A DNA stretch of 64,000 nucleotides from Pseudomonadota bacterium. Lineage in GTDB: Bacteria > Pseudomonadota > Gammaproteobacteria > Pseudomonadales > Halieaceae. The DNA is taken from contig JBCDFM010000003.1 in the NCBI GenBank assembly GCA_039178015.1, positions 475 through 64,474 on the forward strand, written 5' to 3'. A model generated the notes under the pieces. The model was not told the DNA's origin and made no database searches. It saw nothing but the letters and a program-made list of their open reading frames with translations. Shown in pieces: positions 8,872-15,839 of the stretch (the stretch's first letter is position 1; each line of letters begins with the position of its first letter). The position numbers were made by a program, and so were the translations under genes.

Positions 8872-8899
8872 GAGCGAGCTCGCCTCGCTCAGGATTTTT
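8872..8899 (+). terminator. Rho-independent terminator candidate after the nrdAB region
   Basis: Stem GAGCGAG (8872-8878) / CTCGCTC (8884-8890) with a 5-nt loop, followed by AGGATTTTT. Confidence 0.5.
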
Positions 8900-9017: not shown

Positions 9018-9545
9018 CTAGGCAACCTTGACGTGCTGTGAAGCGCTTTTTCTTCGGTTGCGAATAAAGGTTCCTAAGCCTATCGAGAGACGTCGATGGA
9101 TCGGCAGCCGATCAATAAAGAGTCTGCCCTCCAAGTGGTCCAGCTCATGCTGCAGACAGACTGCCTCCATGTCCTCCAGGTCGCGCTCGAAGACTCGCCC
9201 CTCACTATCACTGGCTCGTACTGTGACACGCGTGTCTCGCACTACATTTCCAATTACTCCGGGTACAGATAAACAGCTTTCCTCTACCAAGGCTGGGCGC
9301 TCGCGGCCGACTATTTCCGGGTTAATAAATATCTCCGCCGAGCTTCTGTCATCTGACAAGTCCATTATCAAGATACGGCGGAAGTCCCCGGCCTGGGGGG
9401 CAGAAAGGCCAATACCACCCGAGGCATAAAACGTTTCGACCAAATTATCTAGCGCCCGCTGGAGAGATGCGTCAAACTTTTCGACCGTGCGCGATTGCTG
9501 GCGTAATCGCTTATCGGGGTATTCAATCAACGGAAGCAGGGCCAT
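9018..9545 (-). CDS. def: Peptide deformylase (paralog-like, variant motif 2)
   Basis: 175 aa with GIGLSAPQ (motif 1), EESCLSVPG (motif 2, Gly to Ser) and QHELDHLEG (motif 3). AAGGAG RBS upstream. It lies 62 nt downstream of pucC on the same strand. Confidence 0.9.
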   Translation of the reverse strand: MALLPLIEYPDKRLRQQSRTVEKFDASLQRALDNLVETFYASGGIGLSAPQAGDFRRILIMDLSDDRSSAEIFINPEIVGRERPALVEESCLSVPGVIGNVVRDTRVTVRASDSEGRVFERDLEDMEAVCLQHELDHLEGRLFIDRLPIHRRLSIGLGTFIRNRRKSASQHVKVA

Positions 9546-9607
9546 AGCATTACTCCTTCTGGCGTCCTAATTCAGGGAATATCAGGCCTGTGAAGCAGAG
9601 GCAGCTC

Positions 9608-11041
9608 TCAGACCGTGGCATCGCGCATGTCTGCCCCTCTACCCAAAGCCGTGTCGTGTCTCACTGCGCCGGCTGCCTCTCGAATCAGAGGCCAGGTAGC
9701 GATAATCGCGATGACTAATAGTGCCATCTCTAGCGCGTAAACAGTCAAATAGCCGCCGGCAACCGACGGGAAGCCCCAGAGCTCGCCACCTTCTGTGATC
9801 AATGCGTTAACCACATCTCGTAGTGTTCCGCTAAGTGCCATGCCGATTCCCACGGCCGTGGCTTGTACAGCTCCCCATGAGCCTAAAGCCAACCCCACCT
9901 GCTCTTTAGGGGCGCGGTTCATCGCAGCTGTCAGCGTCCCGTGACTGAACAAAGCTGTACCAAAGCCGATTCCGAAATTACCCGCTAAAAACAAGATCGT
10001 CATATCGCTTGGCACAGCAGCGATCACTAACAGGAAGGCAGGAAGACCTATGAGTGCACCCAACTGTGCTACCCGATAGGGTTCACTCCCCCGCCCAAGC
10101 ACATGCGATGCATAGCCAAATCCCATTAGGCCACCGAGTGCCAGCAGCGCAGTCAGCAGCGTTGTAGAGCTCACGGTAAGGCCCAAGACCTGTCCGCCGA
10201 ATGGTTCAAGTAGAATATCAGCCATCCCAAACGCCATGCTGCCCAAGCCAACAACTACTAGACGCCTTATGGCATAGCTGCCAGCGCAGAAATCACGCCA
10301 AGAGTCGCGAAAGCTCGGATCTTCTACCACAGGCGCTCTTCCCCTTGGCGGGTTACGCGCTTCTTGCTTCCAGATCGCAATAACGTTTAGCAATAAACAG
10401 CTGACGGCAGCAGCCTGGATCACCTGCACTAATTTGCTATGCGAAAAGTCTTCCAAGGCCATCCCAAAAATCAGCGCGCTGATCATCATGCCCAGTAGCA
10501 GCATCACATACATCAACCCTACTACCCGAGGTTGAGATTCTTGCGGTGATAAATCCGTCGCTAGCGCTAAGCCCGCCGTCTGCACCGTATGAATTCCCGC
10601 CCCCACCAGCAGAAATGCAAAACCCGCAGCGAGCTGTCCGACTATGACAGGTGCATTAGAAGCCTGTCCTTGACCTCCCAATACCAAGAGCGCAAATGGC
10701 ATAATGGCGAAACCACCGAACTGCAACAGCGACCCTTTCCAAACAAACGGCACACGGCGCCACCCCAGCTCACATCGGTGCGTATCTGATTTAAAGCCGA
10801 TAACAGCACGCAGCGGAGCAAATAAAACCGGAAGAGCTAACATGATGCCCACGAGTGTGGCAGGCACATTCAGCTCGACGATCATTACCCTGTTGAGAGT
10901 TCCTACCAGCAGCACCATCGACATACCGACAGACACCTGAAACAGCGAGAGTCGAATCAGACGATGTAGCGGTAGCTCTGGCGTTGCCACATCCGCGAAA
11001 GGTAAAAATCGCGAACCCAAGGTGGCCCATGCCATGACCAT
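9608..11041 (-). CDS. pucC: PucC / BCD-family (bacteriochlorophyll delivery) MFS protein
   Basis: N-terminus LFQVSVGMSMVLLVGTLNRVMIVELNVPATL...APLRAVIGFKSDTHRCELGWRRVPFVWKGSLLQFGGFAIMPFAL is the PucC/LhaA signature. The start is moved from 11101 to ATG 11041 (MVMAW...), which is preceded by GGAGAAAAGG. It lies downstream of pucBA. Confidence 0.85.
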   Translation of the reverse strand: MVMAWATLGSRFLPFADVATPELPLHRLIRLSLFQVSVGMSMVLLVGTLNRVMIVELNVPATLVGIMLALPVLFAPLRAVIGFKSDTHRCELGWRRVPFVWKGSLLQFGGFAIMPFALLVLGGQGQASNAPVIVGQLAAGFAFLLVGAGIHTVQTAGLALATDLSPQESQPRVVGLMYVMLLLGMMISALIFGMALEDFSHSKLVQVIQAAAVSCLLLNVIAIWKQEARNPPRGRAPVVEDPSFRDSWRDFCAGSYAIRRLVVVGLGSMAFGMADILLEPFGGQVLGLTVSSTTLLTALLALGGLMGFGYASHVLGRGSEPYRVAQLGALIGLPAFLLVIAAVPSDMTILFLAGNFGIGFGTALFSHGTLTAAMNRAPKEQVGLALGSWGAVQATAVGIGMALSGTLRDVVNALITEGGELWGFPSVAGGYLTVYALEMALLVIAIIATWPLIREAAGAVRHDTALGRGADMRDATV

Positions 11042-11058
11042 CCTTTTCTCCAGGCGAT

Positions 11059-11181
11059 TCACTGAACGACACCCCACGCAAGACCGGTTAAGGAAAACCA
11101 AACAATAAAAACAACCACTGTGCTCAAGGAGAAGCGCGGCTGAAGAAGGCCCATATCATCAAACAAGCAAACAGCTGACAT
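11059..11181 (-). CDS. Candidate 40-aa single-TM peptide upstream of pucC (speculative)
   Basis: Hand translation gives MSAVCLFDDMGLLQPRFSLSTVVVFIVWFSLTGLAWGVVQ. The stop lies 17 nt before the pucC ATG. RBS is weak and there is no homology evidence. Confidence 0.2.
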   Translation of the reverse strand: MSAVCLFDDMGLLQPRFSLSTVVVFIVWFSLTGLAWGVVQ

Positions 11182-11234
11182 TGCCTGGAGTAACTCCGCT
11201 AGCCCCGCACGAGACACGCTGTCTCAAAAGCGAA

Positions 11235-11852
11235 TCAGCGTTCCTTATTACGAATAAGTAACGGTAGACCAAAACTCGAGCTTCGCTCGCCTTTAGGTTT
11301 AGTCAGCAGGGGTATGCCAAAGCTACTCTCTTTCTTTTTTTTCTCCGTCAAGGGCTTCAACCCAATCATGGAAGACAGTGGCGTAGGACCCTTACTCAGA
11401 CCACTGCCAAACATGAGCCAACTGCTTCGCGTGAGTGGGGGAAACAAGCGCGAGAGCATGCTTAGCCTGCGCGTTGCAAGAGCTGGCATTCCAATCAAAG
11501 AGGAAAGCGGCGTAGGGTTTCTGGGCGCAACCTGCGGGGAACCACCTGCATCCAGCGGGTTGGCGGATTCCAGTGCACTGGTAGCGCTCGCACCGGTGCC
11601 AAACTCAGCGTTCACTACAACAATATGGCGCCCTTGCGCTAAACCGCGAGAAAACACTACTGCCAGACTGCCGTTTAATTCCTCCACGCCGACATCGACT
11701 TTTTTAATCAAGCCAGCAGGCGTAATGGTTTCACCCATCACATCGGGACTGACATGAACAATCAGTTCATCCTTAAAACCTCGATCAAGCAGCGCTTGTA
11801 CCGCAGCGGCGGCTTGCTCACCAGTTTGGTACATCCGTCCAACGTAGGCCAT
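11235..11852 (-). CDS. Uncharacterised protein inside the puc locus: globular N-domain plus C-terminal repeated [ST][ST]-x-x-G-x-P-x-L motifs
   Basis: 205-aa ORF with a GAGAGG RBS. C-terminal repeats are PTPLSSLIGMPAL, PTPLSSMIGLKPL, SSFGIPLL and SSFGLPLL. It is on the same strand as pucA and pucC and lies between them. Confidence 0.6.
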   Translation of the reverse strand: MAYVGRMYQTGEQAAAAVQALLDRGFKDELIVHVSPDVMGETITPAGLIKKVDVGVEELNGSLAVVFSRGLAQGRHIVVVNAEFGTGASATSALESANPLDAGGSPQVAPRNPTPLSSLIGMPALATRRLSMLSRLFPPLTRSSWLMFGSGLSKGPTPLSSMIGLKPLTEKKKKESSFGIPLLTKPKGERSSSFGLPLLIRNKER

Positions 11853-12018
11853 AGGCGCCTCTCATAGAGCTTGTTAGCAATACATCTTCTATGGCTCTCC
11901 CAAAAGAGAAAGCCGGTCACATTTGCACCACCGACGAGCGACGCACCAGTGAACCGAGTGCGCCGGCGCCCGTGGAGCTGATGGACTACCCCACCTTCAT
12001 ACCGCGTATTGGTCGCAC

Positions 12019-12039
12019 GCTAGATAGCACTTATCTAGC
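12019..12039 (-). other. Stem-loop downstream of pucA (possible mRNA-stabilising or attenuating hairpin)
   Basis: Perfect 8-bp stem GCTAGATA / TATCTAGC with a 5-nt loop, 46 nt after the pucA stop. There is no U-tract, so it is not a canonical intrinsic terminator. Confidence 0.3.
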
Positions 12040-12084
12040 AGCAAGACTCGATAAACAAGCCTTACTAAATCAATCCCAGGCTCG

Positions 12085-12228
12085 CTATCCGCCCCAGAAT
12101 TGCGACATCCAACTCGTATTATTCAATATCAGGTAGTGTATTAGGAGTGAGGTGATGGCAGCACTGCTCAAGAACAGCGGCAAACCAACTGTGGGCTTAA
12201 CCACACACCAGATTCTTCCGTTATTCAT
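12085..12228 (-). CDS. pucA: Light-harvesting complex 2 (LH2) alpha polypeptide
   Basis: Hand-translated 47 aa: MNNGRIWCVVKPTVGLPLFLSSAAITSLLIHYLILNNTSWMSQFWGG. It aligns without gaps to Rhodobacter LH2 alpha (M.NGKIW.VVKPTVG.PLFLS.A.I.S..IH) with His31 conserved. The ATG lies 11 nt after the pucB stop, behind GGAGATAGAGA. It is below the ORF-track cutoff. Confidence 0.88.
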   Translation of the reverse strand: MNNGRIWCVVKPTVGLPLFLSSAAITSLLIHYLILNNTSWMSQFWGG

Positions 12229-12239
12229 TCTCTATCTCC

Positions 12240-12404
12240 TCATCCAAACCAGGGTGAATAAATGAACGCCAATGCGTGTGCGATCACTGCGATGAAGAAG
12301 AACACTCGCGAGCCGTCGATGACGTGCTTGTGAAGCTCTTCCGATTCTTTGATCGTCAGACCCGTGGGCCATACGCGATCTGGATCATCCAAGTCAGTAG
12401 CCAT
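12240..12404 (-). CDS. pucB: Light-harvesting complex 2 (LH2) beta polypeptide
   Basis: Hand-translated 54 aa: [54 protein letters not shown]. It matches LH beta chains (VWP.GLT..E.EE.HK, ..RVF, A.IAH.L, PW.G) including the BChl-binding His. Strong RBS GGAGGAAACTT-ATG. It is below the ORF-track cutoff. Confidence 0.9.
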
Positions 12405-12544
12405 AAGTTTCCTCCACGAAATACTGGCCGAATATGAAGCAATTTAGACCTCATCTTCACCAACCGACGGGCGTTAGTTGCTCGTTTTGTAGGGTCAATC
12501 ATGCACTGCGATACCGCAGTTGCTAGTTTGCCAACCCTAAATTC

Positions 12545-12573
12545 ACAGTAGCAGCATTAATAAAAGCAGTCAA
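12545..12573 (-). promoter_or_regulatory. Candidate sigma70-type puc promoter (-35 TTGACT, 17-nt spacer, -10 TACTGT)
   Basis: The minus strand reads TTGACT-gcttttattaatgctgc-TACTGT. This predicts a leader of about 130 nt before the pucB ATG. Confidence 0.3.
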
Positions 12574-12593
12574 GACTTCTTGTCATTCTATAC

Positions 12594-12611
12594 TGTAAAC
12601 TAAAGTTGACA
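12594..12611 (-). promoter_or_regulatory. Perfect TGT-N12-ACA palindrome (PpsR/CrtJ-type operator) upstream of pucB
   Basis: TGTAAACTAAAGTTGACA at 12594-12611, about 20 nt upstream of the candidate -35. A one-mismatch copy (TGT-N12-GCA) lies at 12488-12505. Confidence 0.35.
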
Positions 12612-12654
12612 TTCTGGAGATGGCGCTCCAAATCACCCCGCAAGCGGGCAGGCA

Positions 12655-13206
12655 CTATCGCGCGTCACGTAAAACCCAGGCATAACGGCGGCACTGGGCA
12701 TCTAATTCTTCTGGATTTCGCGTGGGTGAACATCTTCCCGGAGCCAACGAGGTCACATAAAGGGCCAAGCACTCTTCTTCACTCAGATCCTCCGGCGTTT
12801 TGTTGAAATAGTGCTTCGATCCATGAATCAGTCCGCGACCCCCTTCAAAAGGCAAGAAATGCATGTACAGAGCCAGCATCAACTTCCTCCCTAGACGCTT
12901 TGGTAGAAGGTAACGCCAAAGCAGCACGCGAGCCTGCATGACCTGCGCATCGGCGTCATCGCCCTCCAGGTGGACAATTACTTTACGGCAAACAATATGC
13001 GTAAAAGCGTCCTCTTGAAGACGTAAGACCAGCTTGACGAGCGCAGCAGGTGGTTCAAGTTCGCTCGGATTAAGTCGCTTGAGTAACCGATCGACCTCAG
13101 GCTGCAAGTCAAAATAGGCCGTCTTGCAATACCAGAACAACGCCACTAAGGCGACAAGGACAAATGCAATCATCAGCGCGAACAGCGCAAGCGGTAGAGA
13201 CATCAT
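12655..13206 (-). CDS. Membrane-anchored, degenerate GT51 (peptidoglycan transglycosylase)-like domain protein
   Basis: 183 aa with an N-terminal TM helix. QEDAFTHIV resembles the EDxxFxxH motif. LPFEGGRGLIHGSKHYFNKTPEDLSEEECLALYVTSLAPGR resembles the GT51 G.GxxGxxxAAxxYFxKxxxxLxxxExAxLAxxxxxP block. It is shorter than MtgA and lacks a clear GxSTITQQ motif. Confidence 0.45.
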   Translation of the reverse strand: MMSLPLALFALMIAFVLVALVALFWYCKTAYFDLQPEVDRLLKRLNPSELEPPAALVKLVLRLQEDAFTHIVCRKVIVHLEGDDADAQVMQARVLLWRYLLPKRLGRKLMLALYMHFLPFEGGRGLIHGSKHYFNKTPEDLSEEECLALYVTSLAPGRCSPTRNPEELDAQCRRYAWVLRDAR

Positions 13207-13267: not shown

Positions 13268-14593
13268 CTATTCAATAGCAATACTCTCAAGGCCAAACTT
13301 TATCTCTCGTTGATCAGAGCTATCGCCCACATCGGCTGGCTTTAGGGGCGAACGGTGCAAAAATTCCAGGTAAACATACTCTTGATCAAGAGCTCTTCTA
13401 GGCAGATCTACCGCTACCTTTGAGAGGTCATAGTTTCCGAGGTCTGCTCCATTGATACGCACCGCCGTGGGCTCTACCTCGCCAAAATACCGGCCACGAA
13501 TCTTCAGCGCAGCCTTACTACGAAGCGCCAGCTCAGGTGATGGTTTGAACTTAATGCAGGATTTTCTACCCAATGACCATCTACCCCAATCTTCCGGAAA
13601 AGCCCAGCCGTAAGCCAAATATAGATGATTCTCCATAGAGTGAGCCTGGCGCAGGCTACCGTCCCAGTCCTGCAGGCGCTGAGATAACAGGAAATACGCG
13701 AGGGCGTTCTCGAACATGCCCCAATCCCGAACAAATCGAAGCGCAGAGTTGTTTTCTATTGAGCGGCCTGCAACAACGAGATTAAAGAAGCCCTCGGATT
13801 GAGGGTCTTGCTCGGTAATATCACACAGAGAACGCACTTCGTCTCGACTCATGGGAAGCAACCCCTGAGTCTGTTCGTCCATCAGATATAGCCGCCAGCT
13901 TTCACGATCAATCAGATCCAGTAATTCCCGGCTGCTGGCACCTGCCCGACGCAAGTGCATGGGTGACACTTCGATAATCATGACGAGATCATCTGCGCTG
14001 GAGTGAATCAAATCCCCGAGACCCCACAAAACATCGCATTCCGCCCCCTGCGTGTCGACTTTAAGAAAGTTGATTCGCTGGTACTGATCTCCAATAAAAC
14101 GTGAACCATTGGCTACTCGAATGGATTGGGACGGCCCGGACCCGCCATCTGAATACAGAGAATGATCTCCACGATTACGTTCGTTCAAGAACAGCTTGGC
14201 TTCACTATCTCGTCGTCCCAACGCAAGTTGAAAACAGCGTAGATTGTCGCATTGGTTAATCTCTCTATTGGTTTGCAACAGTGCAAAATTATCCGCTTCC
14301 GGCTCGAATGCCAGTACTGCACCGGCTGCTCCCACTCGCTGCGAGGCAAGCAGCGAGAAATAACCAATATTCGCGCCCACATCGACGAACACATCGCCGG
14401 GCCTCAGCATTGCGAGCAAAAAGTAGGTCTCCAGCGGCTCCCAAATTCCATTGCTCGCAATGGCAGTCGAGACATGCAAATCAGACTGAGTGTGAACTCG
14501 CATTTGCGGCGGATTATCCACTCCCTCGATCTGCAGCGAATAGATCTCTTTCCTGGCGTGTTTACTCATATCGAGCTGTTCACAGCGTTCCAT
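13268..14593 (-). CDS. FkbM-family SAM-dependent methyltransferase with ~150-aa C-terminal extension
   Basis: VFVDVGANIGYFSLLA, AFEPEADNFALLQTN and FLKVDTQGAECDVL are FkbM signatures. The C-terminal domain contains GWAFPEDWGRWSLG. An alternative start at 14569 would remove the 14-nt overlap with the upstream MFS gene. Confidence 0.8.
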   Translation of the reverse strand: MERCEQLDMSKHARKEIYSLQIEGVDNPPQMRVHTQSDLHVSTAIASNGIWEPLETYFLLAMLRPGDVFVDVGANIGYFSLLASQRVGAAGAVLAFEPEADNFALLQTNREINQCDNLRCFQLALGRRDSEAKLFLNERNRGDHSLYSDGGSGPSQSIRVANGSRFIGDQYQRINFLKVDTQGAECDVLWGLGDLIHSSADDLVMIIEVSPMHLRRAGASSRELLDLIDRESWRLYLMDEQTQGLLPMSRDEVRSLCDITEQDPQSEGFFNLVVAGRSIENNSALRFVRDWGMFENALAYFLLSQRLQDWDGSLRQAHSMENHLYLAYGWAFPEDWGRWSLGRKSCIKFKPSPELALRSKAALKIRGRYFGEVEPTAVRINGADLGNYDLSKVAVDLPRRALDQEYVYLEFLHRSPLKPADVGDSSDQREIKFGLESIAIE

Positions 14594-15839
14594 CGGTTTG
14601 TGTCGCAGTTTCGTAGCAGAAGAAACCTACGATTAGCGCTACCAGCATACATGGGGGGTAGACCAAAAGGGAAAGCTGATAGTCTGCTATGCTCGCGTGC
14701 TGAGCCCGCGTAGTTGAACCCGAGATCAGATCCAAAAGCGATCCGGGGAGCCACTGCATAAAGGCGGCTCCGCCAAAAATCGCTGTGTTGACCAATCCAA
14801 GTGCTGTCGATGACAACGACATGGGGACCGATTCCTTTATCAGCGCGTACAGCAAGCCGAGATAGGCACCGCCAAATATCGCCAACAAGGCAACTAACAG
14901 CGCTTCAACGACAAAAGGCGGTTCACTCCAGAGGATCAGGCACAGTGTACAAAACAGTGTACCAAGCATACCCCACAGCAGGAGGAGCTTGCGCCGGCGC
15001 AATTTGTCCGACAACCAGCCTGCTCCCAAAAGCCCCAATCCTGTGCAGATCATCAAGACCGATCCAAGATTATCCGCCTGAGTGTGAGAGTACCCCGCCG
15101 CCTCGGCAAATGGTAAGTACCACAAGCCGGTAAATGCCATGATTGAGCCCGAGCCAAGAAAGCCCATAAATACGGTGCGACGGATTTGAGTTGAATCCCA
15201 AACGTTACCCAAGTCCTTTCGAATTCCATGCAGCCAGTTGAGGTCTGTGTTGGGCGTTGGTTGGTAGACGAGTCCCCTGGTGAACCACAAACAGGGAATA
15301 AAGGGCAGGAACACGATTCCCAGTAAAAAGAAGTACTGCCGCCAATCTCCACCATCACTCAAAAACACGGGCATAAGCGCAAGAGCCAGCATCGCGAGCA
15401 AAAACTTTACCAGTTGGTTCCACCCGAGCAGAGTGGCAAATTGAAGTGGATCAAATTGATTTGCAGTCAGAGCAAAATAGCCAATAAAAAAAAGACCGCC
15501 GCCAACCCCAGCAATAACTCTACCGGTGTAGGCGAGCATCAAATTGTCTGTCACTGCAAACAGAACATTTCCGACAGAAAACAGTACACAGGCCCAGATG
15601 AGCAAGATTGACGGGCTGAATCTAGCGAAAGCCAATCCGGCAGGTAGCTGCATTAAGGCATAGAACAGAGTGTAGACACCAAACAAAGCGCCGACCTGAC
15701 CGGAGCTAATATGCAAGTTACTACCCAGGTCGTTTGCTAGTGCACCAACCGTCAGCACTTCAAGATTTTGTAGTGCCAGCATAACCGTCGCAAGCACCCA
15801 TAGGAGCCAGCGGCGTCCACCGGCAGTGGTTGACTTCAT
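14580..15839 (-). CDS. MFS transporter
   Basis: 419 aa with about 12 predicted TM segments and an MFS_1-like loop 2-3 motif region (LPAGLAFARFSP). Confidence 0.85.
   Translation of the reverse strand: MKSTTAGGRRWLLWVLATVMLALQNLEVLTVGALANDLGSNLHISSGQVGALFGVYTLFYALMQLPAGLAFARFSPSILLIWACVLFSVGNVLFAVTDNLMLAYTGRVIAGVGGGLFFIGYFALTANQFDPLQFATLLGWNQLVKFLLAMLALALMPVFLSDGGDWRQYFFLLGIVFLPFIPCLWFTRGLVYQPTPNTDLNWLHGIRKDLGNVWDSTQIRRTVFMGFLGSGSIMAFTGLWYLPFAEAAGYSHTQADNLGSVLMICTGLGLLGAGWLSDKLRRRKLLLLWGMLGTLFCTLCLILWSEPPFVVEALLVALLAIFGGAYLGLLYALIKESVPMSLSSTALGLVNTAIFGGAAFMQWLPGSLLDLISGSTTRAQHASIADYQLSLLVYPPCMLVALIVGFFCYETATQTDGTL

Follow-up and report, generated by a model that had tools for sequence, protein, structure and literature searches.

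Classical puc operons, which encode light-harvesting complex 2 (LH2), are organized as pucBAC in Rhodobacter sphaeroides and Rubrivivax gelatinosus, and as pucBACDE in Rhodobacter capsulatus. They share the order pucB-pucA followed on the same strand by pucC, alpha and beta chains of the nonameric type with a B800 site, promoter palindromes of the PpsR/CrtJ type (TGT-N12-ACA, often two, 8 nucleotides (nt) apart) and a stem-loop after pucA. The same features are found in the puc locus described here, which resides at positions 9018-12654 of a 64,000-nt stretch (hereafter, the window) of contig JBCDFM010000003.1 of a Halieaceae bacterium (assembly GCA_039178015.1). Unlike the classical operons, this locus hosts between pucA and pucC a gene for a 205-residue protein of an unnamed family (orf205, hereafter X), plus a peptide deformylase gene (def) coupled to pucC. 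No protein named PucD or PucE was found among 105 X profile hits, a check made on names only.

LH2 is among the best-studied membrane pigment-protein complexes, and both the assembly of the ring beyond PucC and the origin of the N-carboxy-methionine ligand of B800 are still puzzling. Comparison across genomes shows the locus to be one copy of a conserved, predicted five-gene LH2 operon, P(PpsR operator)-pucB-pucA-hairpins-X-pucC-def, apparently a widespread and undescribed version. The locus can be assigned with high confidence to a conserved, putatively PpsR-controlled pucBA-X-pucC-def module, and the LH2 operon variant holding an uncharacterised protein family is what is rated as new here.

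Gene content and conservation of the locus

X homologues were retrieved by the motif NP[TA]PLSS[LM][FL]G alone, a scan blind to neighbouring genes, run on one genome per species (GTDB). In each locus pucB, pucA, X and pucC were mapped with purpose-built hidden Markov models, def by a single phmmer search. The scan hit 77 species genomes, distributed among Alpha-, Beta- and Gammaproteobacteria, Myxococcota, and metagenome-assembled genomes (MAGs) labelled Bdellovibrionales. X adjoins pucBA or pucC in 73 of them; three loci are cut by contig ends, and in the remaining one (L085) the hit is a divergent paralogue located elsewhere. Three gene orders predominate. B-A-X-C-def (arrangement I) is found in 40 loci, def being present in all; X-B-A-C-def (arrangement II) in 18 loci, 13 of which feature def, the others being cut by contig ends or more complex; B-A-C-X (arrangement III) in 14 loci, none of which carries def. 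One further locus has pucBA-X next to a divergent def-pucC pair. X homologues, none of them named, are also found in metagenomes. The first three X homologue contexts inspected all read LH-beta, LH-alpha, X, pucC, def, and in one of the three, a Myxococcota MAG, the module abuts pufLMC.

X and def are not hitch-hikers, since X is adjacent to puc genes in three gene orders over several phyla, and a def clade of its own lies directly behind pucC. An orf205/def neighbourhood of this kind in relatives lacking pucBA had been named at the outset as evidence that would count against the operon reading; the opposite is seen, X and the def clade being almost always associated with puc genes. The locus had also been termed non-canonical, as if peculiar to one genome, a notion that does not survive the recurrence of B-A-X-C-def in 40 of the 77 X-motif genomes. 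No paper tying a deformylase or an X-like protein to puc operons or to LH2 was found; coverage of the literature is incomplete, and an earlier description is possible. In papers on phototrophy in Myxococcota and Caulobacterales the main text does not mention a deformylase, nor do the passages on puc genes and LH2 mention such an accessory gene.

In the window all five genes are on the minus strand, as first reported, and open reading frame (ORF) calls and Pfam or NCBIfam matches leave a genuine LH2 puc locus in which the extra gene parts pucA from pucC, and def is the downstream neighbour of pucC. pucB (12240-12404, 54 codons) encodes the LH2 beta polypeptide (PF00556, E 1.7e-7), and pucA (12085-12228, 47 codons) the alpha polypeptide (PF00556, E 1.2e-9). 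X (11235-11852), an LH2-operon repeat protein gene, has neither a Pfam nor an NCBIfam match. pucC (9608-11041, within an ORF spanning 9608-11101) encodes an LH2 assembly factor of the major facilitator superfamily (MFS) type (PF03209, E 1e-142), and def (9018-9545) a peptide deformylase (PF01327, E 7e-43; TIGR00079, 141.9 bits vs. a cut-off of 103.95). Gaps measure 11 nt between pucB and pucA, 232 nt between pucA and X, and 62 nt between pucC and def. The X-pucC gap is 193 nt if pucC starts at ATG, 133 nt if it starts at TTG. A ribosome-binding site of the GGAG type, read from the window sequence, precedes each of the five genes. The likely start of pucC is the ATG at 11041, preceded by GGAG; this ATG and its ribosome-binding site are kept in a relative (L086) with 79% identity in X.

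A 40-codon ORF between X and pucC (ATG at 11181, stop at 11059, nested in a 52-codon ORF at 11059-11217) had been proposed as a possible membrane peptide gene. It is probably not a gene: neither ORF has a homologue in 85 related loci, and in L086 the stretch carries a frame-breaking 2-nt indel and encodes unrelated frames, the flanking spacer and the pucC start being conserved. The first 90 nt or so past the X stop codon are well conserved (11140-11234 in the window, 643-735 in L086), the next 100 nt or so are not; the conserved part includes the small hairpins GAGAC-N5-GTCTC and GGAGT-T-ACTCC.

Upstream of the puc genes, and co-oriented with them, lie a GT51-like gene (12655-13206), an FkbM gene (13268-14593) and an MFS gene (14580-15839), all on the minus strand. 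The 6.8-kb minus-strand block seen at first sight therefore exists as a run of co-oriented genes; as a functional unit it does not, the three genes having no counterpart in any related locus. It had also been asked whether the whole block (9.0-15.8 kb) is an insertion. On this view the locus would be idiosyncratic and recent, with X, the 40-codon ORF and def as passengers, and all seven genes do lie on the minus strand between the plus-strand nrdAB and fadBA genes, with a slight dip in guanine-plus-cytosine (GC) content (0.49-0.50) around 12-13.5 kb. The five-gene core, however, is kept elsewhere without the three upstream genes, and the 40-codon ORF is not conserved even in a 79%-identical relative. 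As for a genomic island, no tRNA genes were found in the window, no flanking direct repeats, and no clear GC change. An inserted block of passenger genes is highly improbable; insertion of the locus as such is unsupported rather than refuted.

The GT51-like ORF (183 codons) matches only the C-terminal half of PF00912 (positions 96-175 of 178, E 6.6e-9) and features a hydrophobic N-terminal segment; it may encode a truncated or divergent monofunctional transglycosylase. The FkbM-type methyltransferase has a weak DUF7024-like C-terminus, and its gene overlaps that of the MFS transporter by 14 nt, so that the two look translationally coupled; neither is associated with the puc module in other loci.

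Further variation was observed among the related loci. In three gammaproteobacterial loci (L052, L054 and L056), two or three X genes, up to 636 codons long in the longest ORF, are interleaved with two pucBA pairs, X having therefore duplicated together with the antenna genes. Six of the 14 arrangement III loci lie less than 8 kb from reaction-centre genes, several with a pufBA pair of the light-harvesting complex 1 (LH1) type just upstream. In one 3.9-Mb contig (ENA contig_2, L087), the puc module is flanked on one side by genes for the large and small subunits of RuBisCO, on the other by a bacteriophytochrome gene together with genes for a heme oxygenase and a sigma54-type regulator. Such neighbours point to control by light quality in the organism concerned, and perhaps to an autotrophic way of life. 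Two loci of distant lineages (L004 and L007) have a CBS-domain gene on the opposite strand just past def, adjoining a hemerythrin gene in the former and a DUF2269 gene in the latter; this may be a further, loosely linked gene.

Promoter, operator and folded spacer

The promoter region of the locus maps at 12568-12612, on the minus strand. The sole sigma70-like match on this strand, ATGTCA-16-TAGAAT (12612-12585), lies upstream of pucB. Its -35 box (ATGTCA, 12607-12612) is overlapped by a perfect palindrome of the PpsR/CrtJ type, TGTCAACTTTAGTTTACA, at 12594-12611. A second, degenerate palindrome, TGACAAGAAGTCTTGACT, with two mismatches, can be read at 12568-12585, 8 nt past the first, and the -10 box (TAGAAT, 12585-12590) covers the end of the 8-nt spacer and the first base of this second palindrome. 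In the window taken alone, TGT-N12-ACA sites number 10 vs. 12 expected, so that a single site could be due to chance. Upstream of 82 pucB genes, 68 such sites were counted vs. 5.6 expected, a 12-fold enrichment, most of them fitting TGTCA-N8-TGACA; in 17 of the 82 regions two sites are 26 nt apart, the geometry found in the window. Sites of this kind precede X in 3 of 42 cases in arrangement I, and in none of 14 in arrangement III. Transcription is predicted to start at the sigma70-like promoter overlapped by the PpsR/CrtJ-type palindrome.

Two adjoining stem-loops (12019-12066, minus strand) are predicted in the pucA-X spacer, the first one starting 18 nt past the pucA stop codon. The perfect 8-bp stem-loop first noticed at 12019-12039, GCTAGATA-agtgc-TATCTAGC, is exact; the adjoining hairpin (12040-12066) has 11 pairs, and neither is followed by a T-run. 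The 232-nt spacer as a whole folds at -92.4 kcal/mol (z-score -2.9), and one in 200 shuffled sequences folds as well. Folding past pucA is common to the family: over the 100 nt following the gene, the mean z-score in 85 pucA genes (related loci plus the window) is -2.6, with values below -2 in 73% of cases. The corresponding means are -1.1 after X, -0.2 after pucB, -0.3 after def and +0.2 after pucC. A scan for intrinsic terminators gave 13 sites vs. 8.6 +/- 2.7 expected, none of which falls in the intergenic gaps of the operon, and no Rfam match was found in the spacers at E<=0.1. The median distance from pucC to def is 9 nt; the gap is 20 nt or shorter in 50 of 57 loci, the two genes overlapping in 11, and the 62 nt of the window are at the long end of the range.

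Operator enrichment, post-pucA folding and tight pucC-def spacing all fit one PpsR-controlled unit with structure after pucA. One regulated unit of this kind is the textbook puc design. The stem-loops likely work as a 3' stabiliser or as a partial attenuator setting a high ratio of pucBA to accessory gene message: by stabilising or attenuating the transcript they would keep the alpha/beta message abundant and that of X-pucC-def low, as happens with classical puc operons. An abundant pucBA message with read-through into the accessory genes, as proposed at the outset, fits the comparative data, in which the sole sigma70-like promoter lies at pucB with its putative operator, strong structure consistently follows pucA only, and PpsR sites before X are almost absent in arrangements I and III.

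On the far side of the locus, a GC-rich plus-strand hairpin with a T-run (8872-8890) ends the nrdAB unit, 128 nt past the def stop codon. It is the sole terminator-like structure between the convergent nrdAB and puc units, and might serve both.

Antenna polypeptides and deformylase

The pucBA genes encode, as judged from residue-level comparison, a nonameric-type B800/B850 antenna with a complete B800 site. The assignment is based on the Pfam matches, on in-register alignment from Met1 to nonameric LH2 chains, and on the B800-site residues. In a search of all solved structures, the pucA protein aligns 1-47 to 1-47 with the LH2 alpha chains of Rps. palustris, Rba. sphaeroides and Rbl. acidophilus (E 6e-17 to 1e-11), LH1 chains scoring only near E 1. 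The nearest solved relatives of the pucB protein are the nonameric LH2 beta chains 7ZE3 (E 7e-24), 7PBW and 1KZU, LH1 being far weaker. In NCBIfam, which offers LH1 models only, pucB gives a borderline match (62.1 vs. 61 bits) and pucA remains below threshold. The B800 site of the 2.1-A Rba. sphaeroides structure (7PBW) is made up by alpha Met1 and Asn3, and beta His22 and Arg30 (PMC8775250). Read against 7PBW, the window chains keep every one of these residues. pucB carries H-x7-R-x9-H, that is, the His and Arg of the B800 site followed by the B850 His, a pattern found in 77 of 84 related beta genes. The pucA protein starts with MNNGRIW, has the B850 His within LLIHYL, and ends with SQFWGG. 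Its N-terminus is of the form MN(N/Q)GRIW across the related loci, and in X-linked loci the first 21 alpha residues are about 94% conserved vs. 66% in the rest of the chain.

The alpha residues hydrogen-bonding the B850 pigments (Tyr44-Trp45 in the B800-850 antenna of Rbl. acidophilus) are Phe-Trp in the window, and the absorption of the window antenna may therefore be nearer to 820-840 nm than to 850 nm. The same positions are Phe-Phe (WFPAFFQGG) in most arrangement I loci (L009-L044), as in blue-shifted B800-820/830 antennae. Alpha chains with Ala/Pro/Thr-rich C-terminal extensions of some 50-70 residues are found in 13 arrangement III loci (L060, L064, L066, L069-L071, L073, L075, L076, L079, L081, L083 and L084).

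The def product features the motifs GIGLSAPQ, EESCLS and HELDH, with the catalytic Gln, Cys and His-Glu-x-x-His intact. These residues are invariant in 57 puc-linked copies, and the encoded enzymes should for this reason be active. In 51 of the 57 copies, Ser replaces the canonical Gly of motif 2, and ESCLS instead of EGCLS is found in 117 of the 120 closest database homologues of the window gene. By motif and gene context, puc-linked def genes are shown to form what is best described as a distinct deformylase clade. When three homologues were picked solely because they lie on long contigs, all three mapped directly behind pucC, one in arrangement I, one in arrangement II, one in a pucBAC-def locus devoid of X.

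In three solved nonameric LH2 complexes, one of them from ref. PMC8775250, alpha-Met1 is N-carboxylated and ligates the magnesium of B800. N-carboxylation needs a free amine, and the formyl group must therefore go first. The puc-linked enzyme would strip the N-formyl group from the LH polypeptides, leaving the amine of alpha-Met1 free for N-carboxylation and magnesium ligation, and making the beta Met trimmable. LH chains of 47-54 residues are finished at about the time when the N-terminus leaves the ribosome, which leaves only a brief moment for co-translational deformylation; an enzyme dedicated to the task and made along with PucC is thus reasonable.

Alternatively, def might be the sole housekeeping deformylase of the genome, found downstream of pucC by chance. 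No def-fmt pair is present in the ORF list of the 64-kb window, as this view would have it. Yet the same clade is found behind pucC in Alphaproteobacteria, Gammaproteobacteria and Myxococcota, carries its own motif, and occurs in none of the 14 arrangement III loci; moreover, it would be strange for an essential gene to be put under PpsR repression and downstream of an attenuating hairpin. A chance neighbour is very unlikely.

The repeat protein X and its comparison with known systems

The X family is large. An exhaustive profile search gave 526 cluster representatives at E<=1e-30, a number that rises to 937 when the limit is relaxed to E<=1e-10; all named members are hypothetical proteins, and the family has no Pfam model. 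Residues 1-100 of the window protein form a confidently predicted small beta-alpha-beta head (AlphaFold2 predicted local distance difference test (pLDDT) 87-98). The tail (residues 106-205, approximately) has no fold of its own (pLDDT 48-58), a result unchanged in a second run with 107 aligned sequences. It carries about five short repeats (NPTPLSSLIGMPAL, LSMLSRLFPPL, GPTPLSSMIGLKPL, ESSFGIPLL and SSSFGLPLL). In the family, the repeat consensus is (R/D)NPAPLSSL(F/L)GLPxLS(R/K), next to a shorter form, KxSSFGxPLLS, with spacing modes of 13, 16-19 and 32 residues. Repeats are usually 4-8 per protein when counted by eye with a loose pattern; under a stricter pattern the count ranges from 1 to 9, with a median of 5. 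Leu and Ser each account for 16% of the tail residues and Pro for 11%; the net charge is about +5 per 100 residues, and no transmembrane segment is predicted in X. No homologue was found when the family profile was run against all PDB chains (E<=10), and fold comparison returned only non-significant PII-like hits (TM-score about 0.55, E >= 0.27).

From these features X is envisaged as a cytoplasmic, LH2-dedicated accessory protein, in which the globular head would bear a net-positive, Leu/Ser/Pro-rich tail of 13-19-residue repeats. The tail would extend along the cytoplasmic surface of the membrane, against the near-invariant alpha N-termini at the B800 face of the ring. About 94% conserved and forming that face, the alpha N-terminus is a plausible partner for the equally conserved X repeat. 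X might help PucC as a scaffold during assembly, or might stay on the ring as a peripheral subunit, much like the gamma ribbon of the Rps. palustris LH2. That X docks on LH2 and that def matures the LH polypeptides are held with moderate to low confidence.

X and def might otherwise be co-regulated general helpers, neither being specific to LH2: X would then be related to YflT and serve in stress or regulation, its tail being disordered, and def would be an additional copy that merely increases deformylase capacity at times of heavy antenna synthesis. Ten of 30 X family members show weak matches to PF11181 (YflT, a heat-induced stress protein; general stress protein 17M), all below threshold (E 0.005-1, best E 0.0047), the window X giving none, and five members give likewise weak, sub-threshold matches to FG-repeat regions. 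The resemblance of the head to PII-like signalling folds, weak as it is, goes in the same direction, as does the full set of catalytic residues that def shares with ordinary type 1 deformylases. The linkage of X to puc genes in 73 of the 77 motif-retrieved loci, in three gene orders and several phyla, speaks against such a general role; a repeat motif conserved between phyla argues for a specific, equally conserved partner, and for def a clade of its own, with a substitution beside the metal-binding Cys in 117 of the 120 closest homologues, points to specialisation rather than plain duplication. General helpers are rather unlikely. The best explanation of the whole (a conserved operon, hairpins adjusting message levels, X acting on LH2 and def maturing LH polypeptides) is given a probability of about 0.55.

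Several observations weigh against that explanation. The roles suggested for X and def are drawn wholly from linkage and sequence. X and def are separable, a point that also favours general helpers: arrangement III has X without def, with the same alpha N-terminus, and one locus (L088) features pucBAC-def without X. Neither can therefore be strictly required for LH2 of this type. The short, divergent X paralogue of L085 sits among polysaccharide genes. The window hairpins are weaker than most (-30.5 vs. a mean of -44.5 kcal/mol over the first 100 nt) and lack a T-run. In model LH2 organisms carboxy-Met1 is made although no puc-linked def is known, as illustrated by the Rba. sphaeroides operon. 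In sequence X resembles neither gamma nor any other chain of solved structure, and its 100-residue globular head has no equivalent in gamma.

A more specific proposal, made by analogy with gamma, is that X is a new, widespread peripheral LH2 subunit with one repeat or repeat pair per alpha/beta unit, wrapping the cytoplasmic B800 face, its invariant serines possibly holding extra bacteriochlorophylls, and that the ESCLS deformylase is the missing maturation enzyme, preparing alpha-Met1 for the N-carboxylation. This proposal as a whole is unlikely. As a matter of pure speculation, the PII-like head may oligomerise and cap the ring.

The module supplies two conserved, operon-encoded candidates for a part in LH2 assembly and in the making of the B800 ligand, both without counterpart in model organisms: an unnamed repeat family of at least some 500 clusters, and a distinct deformylase clade. 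It is carried by many uncultured phototrophs, Myxococcota included, and by at least two cultured bacteria (Algihabitans albus ac2 and Aestuariivirga litoralis), in which both questions on LH2 can be directly tested. Complete genomes with the module include Algihabitans albus NZ_CP159482 and the OZ245815 chromosome. For annotation, a hypothetical protein with NPAPLSSLFG-type repeats beside pucBA, and an ESCLS def gene behind pucC, can be taken as antenna operon genes.

Each of the two additional proteins can be set beside a described one. The def product resembles type 1 deformylases (E. coli Def and relatives) in its full-length Pfam and TIGR00079 matches, its identity of about 50% to solved enzymes and the presence of all three motifs; it differs in that motif 2 reads E-S-C-L-S and not E-G-C-L-S, and in the location of the gene, behind pucC and not before fmt. 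X resembles YflT in having a small alpha/beta domain at the N-terminus and low-complexity sequence after it; the family matches to PF11181, however, all stay below threshold.

The closest likeness in design is to gamma of the Rhodopseudomonas palustris LH2 (RPA1495; PDB 7ZCU, 7ZDI, 7ZE3 and 7ZE8), the locus tag of which is three after that of pucAe (RPA1492). Gamma consists of six 15-residue repeats that run as an extended ribbon around the cytoplasmic side of six alpha/beta units, the serine of each repeat ligating an extra bacteriochlorophyll (Qian et al. 2022, PMC9618040). No LH2 chain was among the matches of the X profile to the whole set of PDB chains (E<=10), and no homology to gamma (EYKGHSGHPLIKQEG repeats) was detected; the resemblance is one of design only. 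Repeats are of 15 residues in gamma and of 13-19 in X. Each repeat of either protein has a Ser and a Pro/Gly that are conserved, predictions give neither a transmembrane helix nor regular secondary structure, and the gene is in both cases close to a pucBA pair. Gamma has been reported to be confined to Rhodopseudomonas (PMC9618040), whereas X is distributed over several phyla.

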